This document shows positions 1-14,382 of a stretch of 14,382 nucleotides of DNA, in pieces (the first letter of the stretch is position 1; each line of letters starts with the position of its first letter). The DNA lies in assembly GCA_048939725.1 (NCBI GenBank), contig JBHLPG010000086.1:1-14382 (forward strand), in the 5' to 3' direction. The DNA comes from Promethearchaeota archaeon (GTDB lineage: Archaea; Asgardarchaeota; Heimdallarchaeia; Hodarchaeales; Hodarchaeaceae). A program made the position numbers and the translations under genes. Under the pieces are notes generated by a model. That model had not been told where the DNA came from. It was given only the letters and a program-made list of their open reading frames with translations, and searched no databases.

Positions 1-3000
1 GTATTAAATAGGAAAAAATGTGGAGATAAGGAATAGATATACTATGAATATAATGGGATCCATTTGAAATGATTGATGTTTGATTTAAAATCCAAGTGGT
101 ATCAGTTTCATCAAAAACAGATAATGTTATATTATGATCATCAAAGGGATCCTGAATTTCACTCCAAAATAGTACTTTTCCGATGTTTTGGTTTTGTTGT
201 GATCTTTCTATGCCATGATTAAGGATTTCAGCTGGGTGATATTCTAAAATTTCTAAATTACTTTCTCCGATAATGAAAGTATTAAGTGACTCATCTTGGA
301 TCACAATACTGTAATTAAAAGCGCAGTTATGGATTATTTGTTTAGAGTGAATGTATAATGATCCGTTATAATGCATTTCAGCACTAATATTCCACGAATC
401 AAGACCATTGTAGTGATGAATTAACAAATTCACATTTGAAATGGTTCCAAACGGATCAACAGCATCAGCCCAAAAAACAAAAAGAGAGGAATAATGATTA
501 ATCGGTGTCTCTTCGAAATCGAAGCCGTTACAAACAGGTGGTGTTAAATCATAAATCGACACTGGTTGCCATGCAGTGCTTTCATTATTTCCTTTCTGAT
601 CCTCAGCTAGAATTCTATAGGTAAATGCCTGATTGGGTTCAAATCCTTCAATAGAAAAAGTAAAAAAGTTTCCAGAACCATTCCATATCATTGTACCATT
701 AATCTTGGATCCATGAATATATTCAAGAGTAACGGAAGTATTTTCCTCAGCTAAACCACTACCGTATTCTCCCTCTATAACTTCTGCCCAAATAGTTACT
801 GTACCGTTTTGATAAACATTTGGCCTATGATCTAAAATATTTGGGGGAGCATCATCTCCAATGACAATTGTCTTACTGATTTCTCCAACATTTCCCGCAT
901 TATCCTCTACCCAAATCCTTAGTGATACTTGATCCCCAAAAGGAAAACTATAGGATGTTCTATAATTATAAAACGCGTCATAATCCATTTCTAAAACAAT
1001 ATGATTCTCTAAATGGGTGAAATTCACATAGAAAGTGTTATTCACATAATAGGTTTCCCCGAATGGATCAATTGCATATGCAAAGACTGTTACCTCGCCA
1101 TCATTAACTGTAGAGTTCTCAAATGAATATATAATGTTTGGTAAAACTCTATCAGAAAGTGTAAAATTCGATGCTTGATTGATTCCAGGATTGTTCCAAT
1201 TATGTGTTGTATCAACAGCAGTTACATAATACCAAAGGTTCTGTAAATTATATTCTAGTGATTGGACACGAGCAAAATAAATTACATCGGATACTTGCTC
1301 CATTGAAAAATTTGTCCATGTTCCAATATAATTCTGTGTATATAATAAATAAGCAGAAGTTTCATTAAAAGGCCAATCAATTATTTCAGCATAGAAGTCT
1401 ACTGTACCATTTCCCCAATCTGTTTTCCAATACGAGGTAATAGGTATTGAATTATCATGTATAACGAACGGCCCCCGTGTTAATGATGTATTTAGGTTTT
1501 TAGCATAATCTGACACAGTGATCCAATAATATACAATATCATTGTACTCCAAATCTAAATTAAAATAATATTGATCCTCTGATTCAATCATAAAGAATGA
1601 AAAGATTTCACCATTTATATCAACATGTAATTGCACGCTACTCTCATTTATGCCACTTTGATAATCATTTTGATCCTCAACAGAGATATAAATTTCCACA
1701 TGACCCTGATAATGAGTGACGAAATTATCAATGATATCATCTTCATTGATAGGTGGAGGAACACTGTCAGTTGGTATAATTGTACGATAAGGTGGAGTTA
1801 ATAAGTATATTTTTGACCCGTTTTCATTTCCTAGACTATCTATGGCAGAATATATTGTATAATTTAAAAGCTCCCCGTAATAGGCCTCAATATAGCATAC
1901 CCAAAATCCAGAACCGTTTTGATGCATCTCTACAAAAGATTCATTTATCTGTAAGACCACAGGATCCATAACTAAGCTCATATTATCAGTAATATTTGCA
2001 TAGAATTGAAGGGTTCCATTTTGGTAATCAATTACATCATATTCAACAATATTGGGAGGGAAAGCATCACCTAAATAAAAAGAATAAAACTGGGTTGTCA
2101 TGGTATTATTAGCTATATCAATAGCTATAATATTGTAAAAAACCTGGACATTTTTATGAGTTAATGTATCAAGTGCACTTGCATTATAATATTGATTCGC
2201 AGTAAAGGCTTCCATTGTGAAATTTTCGTAAATGAGAACTACCTCATTCGTTATATTGATGACTGTTAAATTTAATAATACTTCAAAACTACTACTGTCA
2301 TAAACTTCTGCAAAAAATGTTGAAGAATTATCAAAAAGTGTGGATTCATTTACAAAATAGACATTTTGTACTAGAGGAGGATCATTATCCGTATACTCTG
2401 CGATTATTATATTAATTTCATATTTAGGGTTAATTTGATAGGTTAAATTGGTTGAAAATTCAAGAAATGAGAGTGTATTGTTAATCGAGTCTTCATATTC
2501 TACCGTTATGTTATAATAATCATAAGGTAGATTTGTAAAAATTGTATGCCCCGAAATTGTAGTATTTTGGGTCCAATTTATTGATGGATTAAAAGCATTA
2601 GTAATATTCACCCTAGCATTAGGAACGATTCTATTATCCAAATCTACAACATTAACCCGAACGCTTGCATTTTCAGGTCCTCTTGTTAGATCTGCAATAG
2701 TTATTCCATAGACGTCATTATTTTCGTTATCAAAATAGATTGTATAGATTCGTTCAGAAGAAATTAAATTTGTTCGTAGAACAATCCATTCAGCTTCTAC
2801 AGTGCTCACTTGACTTTCTGAACTCCAGGAATTTCCCCCATCAGTGGAGTTTTTCACAAAAATTGACTTATTGTTGATATAAACGGCAAAAAGAGTATTA
2901 TTTGAAATATCATATGCAGGTTTTACCTCATCTCCCCCTATTCCGCAATTTGTGACCACGTCACTTTTTTGACTCCAAGATCGATTATGATTAAAGAAAG

Positions 3001-5152
3001 CCCATGTTTCTAAATCCCCTGTTGTATTTAGAATGTCATTATTTAAAACAAGATAAACATTCTGGCTATTTGGATCAATGGTAGCTCCCCAATTAGCATT
3101 ATTATTGTAATCATCTTCTGGAGCCTCTGTTTCCGAAGTTAAAGTCGTTAAAAAGGTCGGAGATGCATCCCACATATCCAATTCATCATTATATATAAAA
3201 GAATATAACACGTTTGCAGTTGTATCCTCATAAATACAGAGAATATCGCCTCCACTTAAAGGAAGAAGCTGCCCGTGGTCATCATCATCATCAAGAAAAG
3301 AATAGGGGGGAGTAATATCATACCAGCTTGTATTATATTTCGCAAATTGGGGACCATTGGACATCCACGATGCTCCATAAATTTCTCCCTCTGTTGAAAT
3401 TGTGACTGTTCCTCCTCCATCAGGGGCATTATGAGAACCACCTGAAGCCATAATTATAGTCCATGCACCACTTGAGGTGTCATCTTTTGTATCAAGGTAA
3501 TTATAAACCATCTCATCATATGTGATTGAATTTCCAATAAGATGGATCTTTGTTCCAGTATTATTTGGTGTCCATTGGTCAAACCAACAACTAAAACTTC
3601 GGAAACGATATTCAGGTGGACCGCAATCAATATTAATTGGCCCTTCCCAAGTAGTCCCGTTGTCAGTTGTTTTATAATAAACAATTTCAGCCATACCCCC
3701 ATTTGTCTTTTGGAAAAATAAATATCCATGAGAGTCATTAATAAATACTATATTAGGTCCTGGATTATATTCATCTGTAGAATCATAGACATCATTATCA
3801 ATAATGACCTCCAACCAATCTGAGGGTGTATCGGAGTCTCTTTGTTCTTCAACACCAACAGTATAGAAGGATGTGGGATTTTTTTGATTATTGTACTCAG
3901 TTGTGATCCATTCTGCTAACCTTGAGACCTCAGAAATCCGTACTTCATCTATGATTCCATTCCAAAATCTGTTATCATAATTATAATATTGTCTTCCAAT
4001 ATGAGCCTCGAAACCACTTTCAATTAATGTTCTACTATCAGTATCAGTTTGTAGTGTACCATCAATATAAAGATAGTTCGTTCCAGCATCTATTACTCCC
4101 ACGACTTGGTGCCAATCACTATCAGTATAAGTGTTATCACTATCAGCACTTGTCATGACGCCATTTCCTACCCAAAATCTAAACCTGTTATCGCTATGTC
4201 TCACCAATGCATAACCATTATCATCAGTATCGTCTAACTTGCCAGCTATCCCCATATAATCTCCACTAGCACCTGCAATCTTCACCCACGCTTCGATTGT
4301 TAAGTGAGTATCAAACTCCAAACTAGTTGAACTAGGAATAGAAATATATCGCTCTGATCCGTCAAACTCCTGAGCATAACCGATTTTCGCAGAAACTTGT
4401 GTGGGAATTGAGCCTCCCCCTGTACCATGATTATTGTGCAGTGTGCTATCTCTATATTCATCTACATCTCCATTTCCACTTTCATCCAGATGCCAAACAC
4501 CCTTATAGGATGAGTCCCAGACACCTGTCGGATTTTCCTGACTGCTTATTGTGGAATTACCGTAATACATTATTATCGAGGTATTAATTTCACTTGATAG
4601 CAACGGTATTCTTACCCAAGCAACCATAAATGCATGAGTATTATTGAATACAACATCATAATGCTCTATCTCATGATCAAGTGTCTGGTTGTTTGTACCT
4701 AGGAAGAGGATATCATCACCATCCAATTGTGTATGATAACGAAGATCTCTATCGTAAAGAACAACCAACACTGGAAAATCAGTTAAATTAGCTGCGATAT
4801 TGCTGGAATCAATTGTGATATTTTTGCGATATTGAAAAGAAGGAGCTCCCCAGCCTTCTGATTGAATATCAGCTTTTACAGGGTACGATATAGAAGATGT
4901 CTTCACTCCTGTGCCACTAGAACTTCTTGATACTTCCGAACTCCCAAATTCACGCTCCCTTCTGACACTATCGGATCTGATATCTGCCATTAATCCATTT
5001 TTAAGCTTTGGCACTCTTATTCCATCATCTTTGCAATCTAAAACCTGATTATATGGAGAGAACACTGTACTGAATAATTGGGAAACAAACATAACTATAA
5101 GTAGACATAATAGATATCTATGTCTACATTTTAATTTTTCAGATTTCAACAT
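1..5152 (-). CDS. Giant secreted / cell-surface multidomain protein (adhesin- or S-layer-associated-like). The C-terminal end lies beyond the left window edge; at least 1717 aa.
   Basis: Hand translation of the minus strand starts at ATG 5152..5150, preceded in frame by TAA at 5167..5165. The frame (codon first bases at positions = 1 mod 3) stays open for 1717 codons down to position 2. I verified the frame at 4990, 4561, 3739 and 3304. The ORF is absent from the supplied track because no stop codon lies inside the window. The N-terminus is MLKSEKLKCRHRYLLCLLIVMFVSQLFSTVF. The translated sequence gives recognisable domain motifs along its whole length, which would not be expected from noncoding DNA at this AT content. 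Confidence 0.85.
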   Translation of the reverse strand, partial: MLKSEKLKCRHRYLLCLLIVMFVSQLFSTVFSPYNQVLDCKDDGIRVPKLKNGLMADIRSDSVRREREFGSSEVSRSSSGTGVKTSSISYPVKADIQSEGWGAPSFQYRKNITIDSSNIAANLTDFPVLVVLYDRDLRYHTQLDGDDILFLGTNNQTLDHEIEHYDVVFNNTHAFMVAWVRIPLLSSEINTSIIMYYGNSTISSQENPTGVWDSSYKGVWHLDESGNGDVDEYRDSTLHNNHGTGGGSIPTQVSAKIGYAQEFDGSERYISIPSSTSLEFDTHLTIEAWVKIAGASGDYMGIAGKLDDTDDNGYALVRHSDNRFRFWVGNGVMTSADSDNTYTDSDWHQVVGVIDAGTNYLYIDGTLQTDTDSRTLIESGFEAHIGRQYYNYDNRFWNGIIDEVRISEVSRLAEWITTEYNNQKNPTSFYTVGVEEQRDSDTPSDWLEVIIDNDVYDSTDEYNPGPNIVFINDSHGYLFFQKTNGGMAEIVYYKTTDNGTTWEGPINIDCGPPEYRFRSFSCWFDQWTPNNTGTKIHLIGNSITYDEMVYNYLDTKDDTSSGAWTIIMASGGSHNAPDGGGTVTISTEGEIYGASWMSNGPQFAKYNTSWYDITPPYSFLDDDDDHGQLLPLSGGDILCIYEDTTANVLYSFIYNDELDMWDASPTFLTTLTSETEAPEDDYNNNANWGATIDPNSQNVYLVLNNDILNTTGDLETWAFFNHNRSWSQKSDVVTNCGIGGDEVKPAYDISNNTLFAVYINNKSIFVKNSTDGGNSWSSESQVSTVEAEWIVLRTNLISSERIYTIYFDNENNDVYGITIADLTRGPENASVRVNVVDLDNRIVPNARVNITNAFNPSINWTQNTTISGHTIFTNLPYDYYNITVEYEDSINNTLSFLEFSTNLTYQINPKYEINIIIAEYTDNDPPLVQNVYFVNESTLFDNSSTFFAEVYDSSSFEVLLNLTVINITNEVVLIYENFTMEAFTANQYYNASALDTLTHKNVQVFYNIIAIDIANNTMTTQFYSFYLGDAFPPNIVEYDVIDYQNGTLQFYANITDNMSLVMDPVVLQINESFVEMHQNGSGFWVCYIEAYYGELLNYTIYSAIDSLGNENGSKIYLLTPPYRTIIPTDSVPPPINEDDIIDNFVTHYQGHVEIYISVEDQNDYQSGINESSVQLHVDINGEIFSFFMIESEDQYYFNLDLEYNDIVYYWITVSDYAKNLNTSLTRGPFVIHDNSIPITSYWKTDWGNGTVDFYAEIIDWPFNETSAYLLYTQNYIGTWTNFSMEQVSDVIYFARVQSLEYNLQNLWYYVTAVDTTHNWNNPGINQASNFTLSDRVLPNIIYSFENSTVNDGEVTVFAYAIDPFGETYYVNNTFYVNFTHLENHIVLEMDYDAFYNYRTSYSFPFGDQVSLRIWVEDNAGNVGEISKTIVIGDDAPPNILDHRPNVYQNGTVTIWAEVIEGEYGSGLAEENTSVTLEYIHGSKINGTMIWNGSGNFFTFSIEGFEPNQAFTYRILAEDQKGNNESTAWQPVSIYDLTPPVCNGFDFEETPINHYSSLFVFWADAVDPFGTISNVNLLIHHYNGLDSWNISAEMHYNGSLYIHSKQIIHNCAFNYSIVIQDESLNTFIIGESNLEILEYHPAEILNHGIERSQQNQNIGKVLFWSEIQDPFDDHNITLSVFDETDTTWILNQTSIISNGSHYIHSISIPYLHIFSYLI
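2..2389 (-). repeat. At least 8 tandem, highly divergent ~100-107-aa beta-sandwich (Ig-like) protein repeats inside the giant ORF
   Basis: Repeat-initial linkers recur with a 99-107-codon period, at codons starting 2389, 2068, 1768, 1456, 1153, 856, 550 and ~241. The linkers read DNDPPLV, DAFPPNIV, DSVPPPIN, DNSIPIT, DRVLPNII, DDAPPNIL, DLTPPVC and YHPAEIL. Each unit also has an early strand motif (GTLQFYANITD, GHVEIYISVED, GTVDFYAEIID, GEVTVFAYAID, GTVTIWAEVIE, SLFVFWADAVD, GKVLFWSEIQD). Each has a late strand motif as well (FYNIIAIDIANN, YTIYSAIDSLGN, YYWITVSDYAKN, WYYVTAVDTTHN, SLRIWVEDNAGN, TYRILAEDQKGN). The repeats are visible at protein level only; no DNA-level repeat is evident. Confidence 0.6.
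2395..2668 (-). other. Carboxypeptidase-regulatory-like (prealbumin-fold) domain
   Basis: The translated stretch ASVRVNVVDLDNRIVPNARVNITN...TTISGHTIFTNLPYDYYNITVEYED matches the recalled V-x-V-x-D-x-x-G-x-P-V-x-x-A-x-V ... T-x-x-x-G-x-F-x-F-x-x-L-x-x-G-x-Y-x-V-x-V pattern only loosely. Confidence 0.35.
2690..3823 (-). other. BNR/Asp-box (sialidase-like beta-propeller) region
   Basis: There are two clear Asp-boxes (S/T-x-D-x-G-x-T/S-W). One is YYKTTDNGTTWEGP, encoded about 3644..3675. The other is VKNSTDGGNSWS, encoded about 2822..2856. They are separated by beta-strand-rich sequence. The propeller fold and blade number are inferred, not seen. Confidence 0.45.
3885..4426 (-). other. LamG / concanavalin-A-like lectin domain (Laminin_G_3 type)
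   Basis: The translated stretch reads GYAQEFDGSERYISIPSSTSLEFDTHLTIEAWVKI...GYALVRHSDNRFRFWVGNG...DSDWHQVVGVIDAGTNYLYIDGTL...RFWNGIIDEVRISEVSRLAEWITTEY. This is the classic F-D-G ... T-I-E-A-W-V ... W-H-x-V ... L-Y-I/V-D-G ... F-x-G-x-I-D-E-V-R-I-S ... S-x-x-W-I pattern of that family. Confidence 0.65.
4556..4836 (-). other. DUF2341-like domain of the giant protein
   Basis: The translated stretch reads FQYRKNITIDSSNIAANLTDFPVLVVLYDRDL...DGDDILFLGTNNQTLDHEIEHYD...THAFMVAWVRIPLLSSEINTSIIMYYGN. It matches the recalled DUF2341 pattern (Y-R-x-x-I-T-I, L-x-D-F-P-V-L-V, D-G-x-D-I-x-F, L-x-x-E-I-E, W-V-K/R-I-P, I-x-x-Y-Y-G-N), a domain that commonly precedes LamG domains in prokaryotic surface proteins. 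Confidence 0.55.
5054..5152 (-). other. Signal peptide or N-terminal membrane anchor of the giant protein
   Basis: A basic n-region (K,K,K,R,H,R within the first 12 residues) is followed by a ~20-residue hydrophobic core, YLLCLLIVMFVSQLFSTVF. I cannot predict the cleavage site by eye. Confidence 0.6.
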
Positions 5153-5404
5153 TTCATAGTACTCTTATTATGTTCTACCATTAACAATGAGATGACCAGA
5201 GTCTTCTCTAATTTATTTTTCAGTTATAAATAAATCCTAATAGGAAGAAATCCTTTGAGGAGAAGACTTTGTCCACAAGTCCAATTTCAGCTTATGATGA
5301 GCTCCAAGTAGGATTAGGACAGATATTATTAAAATTAACCAAACAAATTCTCCGAATCATTATTAAAATTGCTTTTAAATCTAATATTATTCATTCCAAT
5401 CTGG

Positions 5405-5444: not shown

Positions 5445-6005
5445 CTATTGATATAATCTTTCAATTATCCTTTCCCCAAGTGCAGAAAAAGCCTGATCAA
5501 CATTTGTTCCATCTTTTGCAGAAGTCGAGAAATAATTAATATGTGCGGTAATATTTGGATGTTTATTAACTAGATATTTGGCAATATAGTCTTTTGCTGT
5601 TTTTACAGTAATCTGTATTTCATCTGTCAAATCCATTTTATTCCCCAAAACTATTATCGAGGAACTAGATAGATCAATATTTTTCGAGAATTCTTGAAGC
5701 CACCTTTCTAGGTTTTTTAGAGAGTTTAACCGAGTGAGGTCAAAGACAATAAATGCTCCCGTTGCGCCTTTGTAATATAGCTGACGAATTTGATCAAAAG
5801 CAGGTTGGCCCGCTAAATCCCAGATTTGAAATCGTAATTTCTTTAAACCATATACTGTATTTAATGTGACCTGTTTTGATAGAAAATCAGACCCTAACGT
5901 TGGAGTATATTCTGATGAAAAGCCTTTTCCAAGATATCGATTAATTAAAGAGGTTTTCCCAACTTTTCCATCTCCAAGTAGGCAGACTTTTGCAAGTAAG
6001 GTCAA
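5445..6005 (-). CDS. Rab/Ras-like small GTPase (Asgard-type eukaryotic signature protein), 186 aa, TTG start
   Basis: All five G motifs are present: G1 GDGKVGKT, G2/switch I YTPTLGSDF (compare Rab TIGVDF), G3 WDLAGQ, G4 GNKMDL and G5 TSAK. The start codon at 6005..6003 is TTG, directly after an in-frame TGA (6011..6009). The next in-frame ATG lies beyond G3, so the TTG start is needed for an intact P-loop. The C-terminus ...GERIIERLYQ has no Cys, so there is no CaaX/CC prenylation signal. Confidence 0.9.
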   Translation of the reverse strand: MTLLAKVCLLGDGKVGKTSLINRYLGKGFSSEYTPTLGSDFLSKQVTLNTVYGLKKLRFQIWDLAGQPAFDQIRQLYYKGATGAFIVFDLTRLNSLKNLERWLQEFSKNIDLSSSSIIVLGNKMDLTDEIQITVKTAKDYIAKYLVNKHPNITAHINYFSTSAKDGTNVDQAFSALGERIIERLYQ

Positions 6006-8934: not shown

Positions 8935-10635
8935 ATGAATTCACTAAATACTGATCAAGATCATGCAGGAAAAGACTTTATTCGAAAAATGATTTCAGAG
9001 GATGTGAAAAACAACAAAAACAATGGTCGTGTTCACACCCGTTTTCCCCCTGAACCGAATGGTTGGCTTCATATTGGGCATGCAAAGTCAATTTATCTTA
9101 ATTTCAGCATTGCAGAGGAATTTAATGGATTATGTAATTTAAGATTTGATGATACAGATCCAGCGAAAGAAAGTATGGAGTATGTAGAAGCTATCAAAAA
9201 TGATGTGAAATGGCTTGGATTCGATTGGGAGGATAGGCTATACTTTGCTTCAGATTATTTTGATCAGTTATATCAATTCGCTATAGAACTGATAAAAGCT
9301 GGCAAGGCTTATGTTTGTGATTTGAGCGTTTCCGAAATGAAAGAACAGAGGGGAACCTCTGAGGAACCAGGGATCGAAAGTCCTTATCGAAATCGACCAG
9401 TAGAAGAGAGTCTTGACCTTTTTGAAAGAATGCGTGAAGGGGAGTTTGAAGATGGATCCCGAGTCCTCCGAGCTAAAATTGATATGACTTCTTCTAACAT
9501 GTTAATGCGGGATCCAATCATGTACAGGATAAAGAGAGAACCGCACTATAGAACTGGAGAAGAATGGGTTATCTATCCCAGTTATGACTATACACATGGT
9601 CAATCTGATGCAATCGAAGGAATCACACATTCACTCTGTTCATTAGAATTTGAGACCCATAGACCTCTTTATAATTGGTATCGAGATCAATTATTAGCAT
9701 TAAACTTACTCAAATACCGTCCAGAACAGACTGAATTTTCTCGACTGAATTTAACCTATACTGTTATGAGTAAACGGCGTTTGTTGGAATTGGTTGAAGG
9801 TGGACATGTTTCTGGATGGGATGATCCTCGTATGCCAACGCTCGCTGGGCTACGGCGACGTGGTATTCCCCCTGCAGCGATAAGAAACTTCTTGGCAAAA
9901 GTTGGAATTTCAAGAAGAGAGAATTATATTGATGTTGGTCTCTTAGAAGCATGTGTCCGGGAGGAATTAGATAAAGAGTGTAACCGTGTTATGGCTGTAC
10001 TACGTCCATTGAAAGTTGTTATTCTGAATTATCCCGAGGATACCATTGAAGAAATAGAGGCTCCGAATCATCCCAAAGATGCGAGTATGGGGACACGAAA
10101 AATACCATTTTCGCGTGTATTGTTTATAGAGCGTGATGACTTTCTGGAGGAACCTCCAAAAAGGTTTTATAGATTAGCACCTGGAAGGGAAGTTCGATTA
10201 CGATATGCATATTTCATTAAATGTGTTGATATTATTAAAGATGATCATACAGGTGAGATCAAAGAATTATATGTTACATATGATCCAGAAACTAAAGGAG
10301 GATTCGCTCCAGATGGACGAAAAGTAAAAGCTACTCTCCACTGGATTTCAGCAAGCCACGCAATCTCAGCAGAGGCACGTTTATATGATCGTCTTTTTAT
10401 TAAGGAGAATCCGATGGAAGATGAGGATTTCATTCAAAATCTCAATCCTGAGTCTTTAGATAATCTTATATGTTATGTAGAACCAAGTCTTGCAAATATG
10501 GCTTTAGGAGCAAGGGTTCAATTTGAACGATTAGGATATTACTGCCTAGATTCAATTGATTATTCCTCTGATCGACTCGTTTTCAATCGAATAATAACCC
10601 TACGCGACACTTGGGCTAAGCTGAAAAAAAATTAG
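8935..10635 (+). CDS. glnS: Glutaminyl-tRNA synthetase (glutamine--tRNA ligase), bacterial-type architecture, 566 aa
   Basis: The ORF is collinear with E. coli GlnS as I recall it. Matching segments are [20 protein letters not shown] (HIGH), [63 protein letters not shown] (KMSKS variant), [28 protein letters not shown], and [11 protein letters not shown]...FNR...LRDTWAK at the C-terminus. Archaeal GluRS has RFAPNPSGPLH and lacks these GlnRS-specific blocks. A weak SD, GTGAT, lies 6 nt upstream of the ATG. Confidence 0.93.
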
Positions 10636-10655
10636 CTACTCACAAAAAAAATGAA

Positions 10656-10727
10656 CAGCCCCGCCCAGAATCGAACTGGGGTCATAGGATTCAGAGTCCT
10701 AGGTGATAACCTCTACACCACGGGGCT
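10656..10727 (-). tRNA. tRNA-Gln (anticodon CUG)
   Basis: The minus strand reads AGCCCCG UG GUGU AGAGGUUA UCAC C UAGGA CUCUGAA UCCUA UGAC CCCAG UUCGAUU CUGGG CGGGGCU plus G at the discriminator position. It has a 7-bp acceptor stem, a 5-bp anticodon stem and a 5-bp T stem. U8, G10, A14, G18-G19, U33 and the T-loop UUCGAUU are present. There is no intron and no encoded CCA. The gene is followed by GUUCAUUUUUUUU (oligo-T). Confidence 0.93.
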
Positions 10728-10752
10728 CAATATGCATTTCAACATTTTCTTT

Positions 10753-10760
10753 TTAATTAT
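10753..10760 (-). promoter_or_regulatory. Candidate TATA box for tRNA-Gln(CUG)
   Basis: The minus strand reads CTATAATTAAAA, with TATAATTA centred about 30 nt upstream of the mature 5-prime end (10727). It overlaps the T-rich trailer of the upstream tRNA. Confidence 0.35.
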
Positions 10761-10769
10761 AGAAAAGAA

Positions 10770-10842
10770 CAGCCCCGCCCAGATTTGAACTGGGGTCGAG
10801 AGGGTCAAAGCCTCTTATGCTAGTCCACTACACCACGGGGCT
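10770..10842 (-). tRNA. tRNA-Gln (anticodon UUG)
   Basis: The minus strand reads AGCCCCG UG GUGU AGUGGACUA GCAU A AGAGG CUUUGAC CCUCU CGAC CCCAG UUCAAAU CUGGG CGGGGCU plus G at the discriminator position. The cloverleaf is complete. The acceptor stem and 5-prime half are identical to the neighbouring tRNA. There is no intron and no encoded CCA. The trailer is GUUCUUUUC. Confidence 0.93.
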
Positions 10843-13821: not shown

Positions 13822-14382
13822 TTACAAAAATAATAGATATCGTGGTACTCTTTTCATATATTCTTGATATTCTTCCCCATACTTTTTTAAGCAAGCTTGT
13901 TCCTGTGCAAGTATATGAAAGTGATTAAAAAGTCTTGAAAAACCAAAGAGATAAAAAAGAAACCATGATCCGACTGAAAAACAAGTACCAAAAAAAGCAA
14001 TTGAAAGCATTGTTTCCTGGGGGTTTCGCGAATATTTATAGAGACCTCGAGTTACTGGTTCATCTAGAGGAGTCTCTTTGAAGTTGATTACAGCGATAAC
14101 TTCCCCAACAATCCCCAGTACAAATAAAAATAATCCAAAATAGAATTCTAGTTTTCCAATCATGAGGGGAGTGAATATTAGAATAATCTGAAACATAAGA
14201 ACTATGAATTTTGATATGCTCGTGAGAATTTTTTGATACTTAGTGAAATTTGATCGATCTAATAAGCGAGAACGAACCTCCTTAGGCATAATTACTAATA
14301 TACTAGGTTGTATAATAGCTACGCTCAATATGAAGAGCCAACCACTAAAAAACGACAATTCCAGTTGGGGGAAGAACTCCAT
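13822..14382 (-). CDS. Polytopic membrane methyltransferase of the ICMT / PEMT (isoprenylcysteine carboxyl or phospholipid methyltransferase) family
   Basis: There are four to five hydrophobic helices. The family motifs are PVTRGLYKYSRNPQETMLSIAFFG (compare G-x-Y-x-x-x-R-H-P-x-Y) and the C-terminal EQACLKKYGEEYQEYMKRVPRYL (compare E-E-x-x-L-x-x-x-F-G-x-x-Y-x-x-Y). The ATG is the last three bases of the window, so a longer N-terminus cannot be excluded. Confidence 0.6.
   Translation of the reverse strand: MEFFPQLELSFFSGWLFILSVAIIQPSILVIMPKEVRSRLLDRSNFTKYQKILTSISKFIVLMFQIILIFTPLMIGKLEFYFGLFLFVLGIVGEVIAVINFKETPLDEPVTRGLYKYSRNPQETMLSIAFFGTCFSVGSWFLFYLFGFSRLFNHFHILAQEQACLKKYGEEYQEYMKRVPRYLLFL

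Follow-up and report, generated by a model that had tools for sequence, protein, structure and literature searches.

The stretch of DNA analyzed here (the window) is the 14,382-nt contig JBHLPG010000086.1 of a Promethearchaeota archaeon, and our subject is its glnS gene, which codes for a glutaminyl-tRNA synthetase (GlnRS), together with the two tRNA-Gln genes beside it. The glnS open reading frame (ORF) runs from an ATG start over 8935..10635 on the plus strand, encodes 566 amino acids, and is of the bacterial type. Exactly 20 nt past its stop codon lies a 72-nt tRNA-Gln(CUG) at 10656..10727, followed after a 42-nt spacer (10728..10769, read from the sequence) by a 73-nt tRNA-Gln(UUG) at 10770..10842; the spacer and both tRNAs were read on the minus strand. 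ARAGORN called both tRNAs, with support from Rfam (RF00005) at 61.4 bits for the first and 57.5 bits for the second. An earlier note on this DNA, made from the sequence alone, had described a full-length GlnRS collinear with E. coli GlnS and lacking the eukaryotic N-terminal domain, with both tRNA-Gln genes 20 nt past the stop on the opposite strand, and it had proposed comparisons by profile hidden Markov model and by codon usage. The description of the locus proved accurate, and both comparisons are given below.

The window protein scores 716.6 bits on the glnS model TIGR00440 (cut-off 425.8) and 353.1 bits on the archaeal gltX model, which is under that model's cut-off of 401.75. Pfam recognizes the catalytic domain PF00749 (E=4e-101) and both anticodon-binding barrels, PF03950 and PF20974. 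In a comparison with PDB sequences, GlnRS of P. aeruginosa scored 687 bits, E. coli 664, human 461, and yeast 413. The bacterial enzymes (PDB 1GTR, 1QTQ, and 5BNZ) are 55-57% identical to the window protein over the full length and have the same three-domain layout, with E. coli GlnS collinear to residues 13-563. Eukaryotic cytosolic GlnRS (human 4R3Z and yeast 4H3S) shares the catalytic core at ~50% identity and differs in having its own N-terminal PF04558/PF04557 region, for which Pfam gave no match in the window protein. The HIGH motif (residues 46-49, 9070..9081) is invariant in all groups of our alignment. It is preceded by 45 residues, against 39 in E. coli, and not by about 30 as the earlier note had counted. 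The MSK of the KMSKS loop is found at residues 278-280 (9766..9774, in the context VMSKR). The glutamine pocket residues R30, D66, Y211, H215, C229, F233, and Q255 (E. coli numbering) are identical in the window protein and in 20/20 core Asgard sequences, and the anticodon readers R341, R402, Q517, and R520, which read U35 and G36 in E. coli, are also kept. Comparison of the window glnS with its counterpart at locus L001 gave nonsynonymous and synonymous divergences (dN/dS) of 0.078/1.0 (~0.08), indicating purifying selection. Because every residue that E. coli GlnRS uses for catalysis, for its glutamine pocket, and for reading the anticodon is conserved, this bacterial-type GlnRS should charge tRNA-Gln with glutamine directly.

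The Prokaryotic Genome Annotation Pipeline (PGAP) names this protein "GlnRS/YqeY domain fusion". The best-scoring NCBIfam model is indeed PRK14703, the Deinococcus-type GlnRS/YqeY fusion (PDB 2HZ7), at 831.7 bits, and the match covers model positions 7-560 of 769. The YqeY/GatB-like domain occupies model positions ~560-769; the window protein ends at residue 566 and gave no PF02637 match. The product name is misleading for the window protein, since the YqeY part is absent, and we correct it here. C-terminal fusions were seen among bacterial GlnRS: P0121 (791 aa) has a genuine GatB_Yqey domain, and P0049 (708 aa) and similar proteins, which account for many clusters among the top matches, have a C-terminal tRNA_bind (PF01588) fusion.

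The most informative feature of the locus, which the earlier note overlooked, is that the linked tRNAs carry G73 and not A73, together with a changed residue 235 in the enzyme. Archaeal tRNA-Gln normally has A73 as its discriminator nucleotide (PMC9499178, PMC8762117), and in both window tRNAs this position is G. The rest of each molecule is archaeal in body, with the 5' end AGCCCCGUGGUGUAG and an A1:U72 pair. Both have G2:C71, C3:G70, G10, and A37, with A38 in the CUG isoacceptor and C38 in the UUG isoacceptor, and CCA is not encoded in either. Glutamine identity in E. coli depends on the anticodon, the 1:72, 3:70, and 10:25 pairs, and the discriminator, and Leu136 of the enzyme matters for specificity (PMC9976931). 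The window tRNAs share with E. coli tRNA-Gln the set G73, G2:C71, G10, U35, G36, and A37 as well as a weak 1:72 pair. They differ where E. coli has U1:A72, G3:C70, and U38, the window having A1:U72 (still weak), C3:G70, and A38 or C38. Eukaryotic tRNA-Gln is unlike both window tRNAs in having U73 and G1:C72 (PMC9499178). Both isoacceptors needed for CAA and CAG are of the G73 type in the window, and the UUG isoacceptor is identical in sequence to the copy at L001.

In the spacer, an oligo-T run (TTCTTTTC) begins immediately past the UUG tRNA, and a TATAATTA box lies ~26 nt upstream of the CUG tRNA. The DNA that follows the CUG tRNA is rich in T as well, and a TATA-like box stands ~26 nt upstream of each window tRNA. 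The run and the box are a possible archaeal terminator and promoter, allowing for chance in DNA this AT-rich. We rejected a bacterial origin of the linked tRNAs, as their sequences have nothing in common with the bacterial ones except the general tRNA fold. Some Bacteroidota and Anaerolineae do have a tRNA-Gln immediately beside glnS (L013 11945-12247, L019 923-995, L031 3979-4052, and L036 9382-9455), and these are of the U1:A72 type and unrelated in sequence to the archaeal ones.

Two of the archaeal tRNA-Gln(UUG) genes beside glnS contain introns: a 34-nt D-loop intron at L003 11877-11983 (minus strand) and an intron of ~30 nt in the T-arm region at L084 11884-11986 (minus strand). ARAGORN missed these copies, which were recovered by a pattern search. 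Such non-canonical intron positions are an archaeal trait. Introns of varied length and position were also seen in many archaeal metagenome tRNA-Gln genes (L089, L092, L095, L102, L107, L129, L132, L164-L166, L196, and L199), and L206 has an apparent partial tandem duplication of the tRNA 5' end.

The arrangement in the window is conserved. Both tRNA-Gln genes lie immediately downstream of glnS in L001, L002, L003, L084, and L087 as well, the pair lies 2.8 kb from glnS in L082, and related arrangements occur in L085, L086, L210, and L211. This conservation suggests that the GlnRS and two tRNA-Gln genes form a functional unit, in line with the module of enzyme and both substrates that the earlier note had proposed. 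All 21 tRNA-Gln genes found beside a glnS carry G73, a total stated for twelve archaeal loci. Itemized by locus, the linked G73 genes are 16 in ten Asgard loci (the window, L001, L002, L003, L082, L084, L085, L086, L087, and L211), 2 in L210, and 5 in Thermoplasmatota (L120, L147, L160, L200, and L208). In the Thermoplasmatota the G73 tRNA-Gln stands upstream of glnS on the same strand (L200 3092-4906; L160 7065-8455; L208 9308-11689; likewise L120 and L147), and we infer that G73 and its linkage to glnS arose separately in that group. A37 is found in most of the linked Asgard copies, with L211 as the exception. We rejected A37 as a universal co-change, as L211 and the Thermoplasmatota combine G37 with G73.

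The deeper-branching Asgard loci L085, L086, and L210 carry, in addition to the G73 pair and 1.5-3.5 kb from it, a third tRNA-Gln(UUG) with A73 and G37. In L210 the linked and unlinked copies are close paralogues, with 12 of 73 nt differing (~84% identity). The linked ones have G:C at 3:70, A37, and G73 where the unlinked one has C:G, G37, and A73, and all of these are identity positions for E. coli GlnRS. A metagenome sample was also examined by scanning contigs for the shared tRNA 5' sequence, so that the sample covers only tRNAs with that pattern. The scan gave 120 matches, about half of which were chance matches in coding DNA and were discarded. Among 62 archaeal-type tRNA-Gln genes, 55 have A73 and 7 have G73; a GlnRS gene is adjacent to 4/7 of the G73 genes and to 0/55 of the A73 genes (Fisher p=6e-5).

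On the enzyme side, two residues at the acceptor stem have changed. Thr241 of the window protein (9655..9657) aligns with E. coli Asp235, the acceptor-stem reader of G2:C71 and G3:C70, and Ser142 (9358..9360) aligns with E. coli Leu136, which wedges open the 1:72 base pair. At position 235 the core Asgard sequences have T14/N5/P1 (n=20), the Thermoplasmatota N11/D1 (n=12), and bacteria D26/N7/V4/A2, with Asp in 26/41. The D235N substitution is a classic relaxed-specificity mutant of E. coli GlnRS. Ser takes the place of Leu136 in the innermost Hodarchaeales subclade alone (P0001-P0013); most other archaeal and bacterial GlnRS have Leu there. The L210 enzyme has Asp235, and its linked tRNAs have G3:C70; the core clade has Thr or Asn with C3:G70. 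This covariation between residue 235 and the 3:70 pair is suggestive.

We consider it probable that the window encodes a working system of direct glutaminylation in an Asgard archaeon, built from an acquired bacterial GlnRS and native tRNAs retuned to G73. A bacterial-type glnS would have been acquired once, by an ancestor of the Heimdallarchaeia/Hodarchaeales group as placed by the phylogeny described below, and would since have been vertically inherited and fully ameliorated. The conserved residues suggest that the enzyme reads U35 and G36 with its two beta-barrels and hairpins the tRNA 3' end into the active site. The tRNAs it charges are most likely those encoded by the tRNA-Gln pair that lies 20 nt past glnS on the minus strand. 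Both are native archaeal tRNAs that appear to have switched from A73 to G73, the nucleotide by which the acceptor end is folded back on E. coli GlnRS; the weak 1:72 pair would open and G73 would stabilize the hairpinned 3' end, as in E. coli. The GlnRS-specific tRNAs may have arisen by duplication and retuning of a native tRNA-Gln while the indirect route, with glutamyl-tRNA synthetase (GluRS) and the amidotransferase GatDE, still ran, a course suggested by the fact that L085, L086, and L210 keep an A73/G37 third tRNA beside the G73 pair along with Asp235. Residue 235, and in the window's subclade residue 136, would then have adapted to the archaeal stem. More tentatively, it is possible that the A73 to G73 switch in a duplicated native tRNA-Gln is what let bacterial GlnRS establish in archaea, at least twice (in Heimdallarchaeia and in Thermoplasmatota), that lineages of the L085, L086, and L210 types run two insulated systems, and that the window lineage represents the end state, in which Asp235 to Thr and Leu136 to Ser have re-fitted the enzyme to the archaeal stem.

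Several observations weigh against this account of acquisition and retuning. The glnS and tRNA-Gln genes of the window are convergent, so they are not one transcript and do not form an operon. Linkage is not universal: within the core clade, no tRNA-Gln was found in the sequence examined around glnS at L081 (part of a closed 3.16-Mb genome) or at L083. In the metagenome sample, three of the G73 tRNAs are on contigs that lack a GlnRS. Some A73 tRNAs (L103, L158, and L190) likewise have A37, and the G73 tRNAs of Thermoplasmatota have G37. The covariation of residue 235 with 3:70 is not strict, because L085 and L086 combine Asp235 with C3:G70 tRNAs, and Asn235 is also present in 7/41 bacterial GlnRS. 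Finally, the tree of the enzyme is distance-based, and its deep nodes lack resolution.

The alternative that survives best is that GlnRS only supplements an intact GluRS/GatDE route, the linked G73 tRNAs being a dedicated GlnRS set beside A73 tRNAs located elsewhere in the genome. The archaeal indirect route, in which a non-discriminating GluRS and GatDE act on A73 tRNA-Gln, serves the same codons, and the window tRNAs keep the A1:U72 pair that GatDE recognizes (PMC9499178). The locus differs from that route in having a direct charging enzyme and G73 tRNAs, with A73/G37 copies seen only in L085, L086, and L210. A supplementary role would fit the dual tRNA complement within 1.5-3.5 kb of glnS at those three loci and the tandem of glnS with an archaeal-type gltX in L209. 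It would also fit the finding, in the reconstruction of Eme et al. 2023, that the family to which GatD belongs is not reduced in the Hodarchaeales ancestor (~3 copies), a family that merges GatD with asparaginases and is not GatD-specific. Against it, no A73 tRNA-Gln was found in the sequence examined around glnS of the window, L001-L003, L082, L084, and L087, and both isoacceptors for CAA and CAG are already G73-type. We regard a purely supplementary GlnRS as a real possibility that we nonetheless lean against. It overlaps with the working direct system preferred here and differs from it only on whether GatDE is retained.

A second alternative is that G73 is neutral, lineage-specific drift and stands next to glnS by historical accident, as when foreign DNA integrates beside a tRNA gene, with no co-adaptation. 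tRNA genes are common integration sites, and some bacteria also have tRNA-Gln beside glnS (L013, L019, L031, and L036); the three G73 tRNAs without an adjacent GlnRS would likewise be unremarkable under drift. However, G73 appeared in two unrelated phyla of archaea, in both cases along with a GlnRS, and where G73 and A73 paralogues coexist in a single locus only the G73 ones flank glnS. The L210 paralogues differ at 3:70, 37, and 73, all identity positions, among ~12 differences, and adjacency in the metagenome sample was confined to G73 genes at the p value given above. We therefore find accidental linkage of a drifting nucleotide unlikely.

The origin of the enzyme was examined with a neighbor-joining tree on corrected distances (200 sequences, 522 columns, 100 bootstraps). 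All Asgard-labelled GlnRS and P0039, whose contig carries a histone and Ribophorin I, form one clade with 94% bootstrap support, with the core Hodarchaeales subclade at 99%. The Thermoplasmatota GlnRS form a separate clade (100%), whose nearest bacterial neighbor by distance is Anaerolineaceae L019, and the eukaryote-type GlnRS form another, in which the N-terminal PF04558 was confirmed in 6/6 checked. Mean distances are 0.50 between Asgard and bacteria, 0.53 between Asgard and Thermoplasmatota, 0.94 between Asgard and eukaryote-type, and 0.90 between bacteria and eukaryote-type sequences. The nearest bacterial GlnRS (Thermodesulfovibrionales and Anaerolineae) are 67-69% identical to the window protein, compared with ~50% for eukaryotic GlnRS. 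No replicate out of 100 placed Asgard and Thermoplasmatota as exclusive sisters. The Asgard clade is nested, though weakly supported there, among sequences from Desulfobacterota, Deferribacterota, and Thiotrichaceae, and the deep nodes of the tree are unresolved. The bacterial-type GlnRS of Asgard archaea is most simply explained by an ancient transfer from bacteria, as the earlier note had supposed.

The earlier note had further suggested a bearing on where the eukaryotic direct pathway came from. A related alternative is that GlnRS is ancestral to the Heimdallarchaeia-eukaryote lineage, and that bacteria received it from there. The host group has been reported as closest to eukaryotes in the Appler et al. 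preprint and by Eme et al. 2023, and the poorly resolved deep nodes leave room for such an origin. The Asgard-eukaryote-type distance of 0.94, set against 0.50 to bacteria and close to the 0.90 between bacteria and eukaryote-type sequences, speaks against it, as do the position of the Asgard clade among bacterial sequences, weakly supported as it is, the absence of PF04558, and the count of 0/100 replicates joining Asgard and eukaryotes to the exclusion of bacteria. We judge an ancestral origin very improbable. Because the Asgard enzyme is bacterial-type, a special affinity to eukaryotes, or a bearing on the origin of eukaryotic GlnRS, is not supported by these sequences.

A paralogue with a non-canonical role, for example in regulation or in a tRNA-dependent process outside translation, is hardly plausible: nothing specific points to it apart from the recurrent adjacency to cox genes (reported by Appler et al. 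and also seen in L087), and the full-length architecture, the conserved active-site and anticodon-binding residues, the strong purifying selection, and the linkage of both isoacceptors argue otherwise.

The earlier note had taken the genome to be archaeal, and the genomic context bears this out. The order of a giant LamG surface protein, a Ras-like GTPase, a saccharopine-dehydrogenase-like gene, an NMO/FabK-like gene, glnS, two tRNA-Gln genes, a histidine kinase, and a radical-SAM gene is collinear in the window, in L001 (which comes from the closed 4.94-Mb chromosome CP070695.1), and in L002 and L003. A homology search found a 100% identical protein in NCBI, from a "Promethearchaeota archaeon" metagenome-assembled genome (MAG) on a 14.45-kb contig; an exact-sequence look-up of the window GlnRS, unlike that search, returned no match. 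GC content at third codon positions (GC3) of glnS is 0.275, compared with 0.24-0.29 in the neighboring genes, and its synonymous-codon usage correlates with the rest of the window at 0.946. The earlier note had offered a higher GC content as a weak hint of foreign origin, a hint that falls away, as the difference lies at first and second codon positions, which reflect amino-acid composition. The window is a genuine Asgard locus of Heimdallarchaeia/Hodarchaeales type, and a chimera or a recent import of glnS is very unlikely because of the gene order, GC3, codon usage, and dN/dS. An assembly or binning artefact joining a bacterial glnS fragment to archaeal DNA can be dismissed as scarcely credible: it has in its favor only the bacterial affinity of the protein and the MAG taxon labels, which are the submitters' own and inconsistent (Thor, Odin, Hermod, and Heimdall). 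Against it, the gene order recurs in a closed chromosome and in two more assemblies, the tRNAs only 20 nt from glnS are archaeal, GC3 and codon usage of glnS are indistinguishable from those of the neighbors, and genes typical of Asgard archaea, among them those for a histone, Ribophorin I, and ribosomal L40e, are present at related loci.

Homology searches found glnS orthologues in dozens of Hodarchaeales/Heimdallarchaeota MAGs, including two closed genomes, and in this Asgard group the enzyme is widespread and seems to have passed down by vertical inheritance. In Thermoplasmatota more than 120 clusters have GlnRS, in genomes that include sizes of 1.9-4.2 Mb and closed ones up to 4.2 Mb; this is apparently a second acquisition, independent of the Asgard one. 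The Thermoplasmatota clade (for example, Thermoplasmatales archaeon ex4484_30, closed genome CP070672.1) is likewise bacterial-type and linked to archaeal-body G73 tRNA-Gln, and its residue 235 is mostly Asn. It differs from the window system in its separate clade and its upstream same-strand tRNA with G37. A further parallel is GluRS2 of H. pylori (Salazar et al.), where change in a Glx synthetase went together with change in the acceptor-stem identity of tRNA-Gln; that enzyme is a duplicate of a bacterial GluRS, serves the indirect route, and is not a transferred GlnRS with a retuned discriminator.

Textbooks, like reviews from 2022, describe archaea as lacking GlnRS; the reviews ascribe this to tRNA-Gln incompatibility (PMC9499178, PMC8762117), and the mismatch of archaeal tRNA-Gln (A73 and A1:U72) with bacterial or eukaryotic GlnRS was proposed as the barrier to GlnRS transfer by Tumbula et al. 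2000, as cited in those two reviews. PGAP already names the Asgard proteins as GlnRS, and one preprint mentions the enzyme: Appler et al. 2024 (bioRxiv 10.1101/2024.07.04.601786), which notes GlnRS beside coxABC in Hodarchaeales in passing. Our literature search found no study dedicated to archaeal GlnRS. Eme et al. 2023 reconstruct ~2.2 copies of the COG0008 family for the Hodarchaeales ancestor, compared with 1.8 for that of Heimdallarchaeia, 1.6 for Loki, and ~1.1 for most other Asgard ancestors; their paper is silent on this pattern. The annotation made in the earlier note stands, and the novelty it attached to the presence of GlnRS does not, as the gene is common and apparently vertically inherited in the group, annotated by PGAP, and mentioned by Appler et al. 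2024. The new point is the retuned tRNA identity: G73 in the linked archaeal tRNA-Gln genes, in two phyla and with apparent intermediates.

Other features of the compared loci may be noted. In L087 (3832-11737) glnS directly follows a DOMON-COX3-COX2-COX1-COX4-SCO1 cluster, matching the remark of Appler et al. L209 (2467-6153) is an "Odinarchaeota"-labelled MAG contig in which glnS is followed in tandem by the archaeal-type gltX (TIGR00463, 473 bits), and it also carries ribosomal L40e and an RTC gene. L210 and L211 share a neighborhood of Vut_1, glnS, tRNA-Gln, Trm112p, and a 99-aa ORF, and the A73 tRNA of L085 and L086 has Trm112p and a 105-aa ORF close by. The neighborhood of glnS, tRNA-Gln, and Trm112p at the deeper-branching Asgard loci suggests an old, stable insertion site.

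Elsewhere in the window, a giant ORF at 2-5164 (minus strand) of at least 1721 aa runs past the left end; it matches Laminin_G_3 and DUF2341 and is probably a surface protein. L001 and L002 match only its N-terminal 130-160 residues, at the margin of each locus. The gene at 5445-6005 (minus strand) codes for a 186-aa Ras/Rab-like small GTPase (Pfam Ras, E=1.7e-41) and is of the Asgard eukaryotic-signature type. Where the window has one such GTPase, L001 (674-1966) and L002 each have two close matching regions on the same strand. The gene at 13822-14382 (minus strand) encodes a PEMT-domain membrane protein that weakly resembles isoprenylcysteine carboxyl methyltransferase (23 bits, far under the cut-off of 160) and is of possible interest beside Ras-like GTPases.

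The presence of GlnRS in the closest archaeal relatives of eukaryotes throws no light on the origin of the eukaryotic enzyme, being of the bacterial type. What these loci do indicate is that at least two archaeal phyla have overcome the barrier to GlnRS, in every case with a G73 tRNA-Gln in physical linkage with the enzyme, and that loci with A73 and G73 copies side by side are apparent intermediate states. The long-standing explanation by tRNA incompatibility becomes directly testable through them. If the switch in a duplicated tRNA-Gln did open the way, the L085, L086, and L210 types would capture replacement of the indirect pathway in progress, and GlnRS with G73/A37 tRNAs and GluRS-GatDE with A73/G37 tRNAs in one cell would be natural orthogonal pairs. 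Such natural tRNA/synthetase pairs may be orthogonal inside an archaeal cell.

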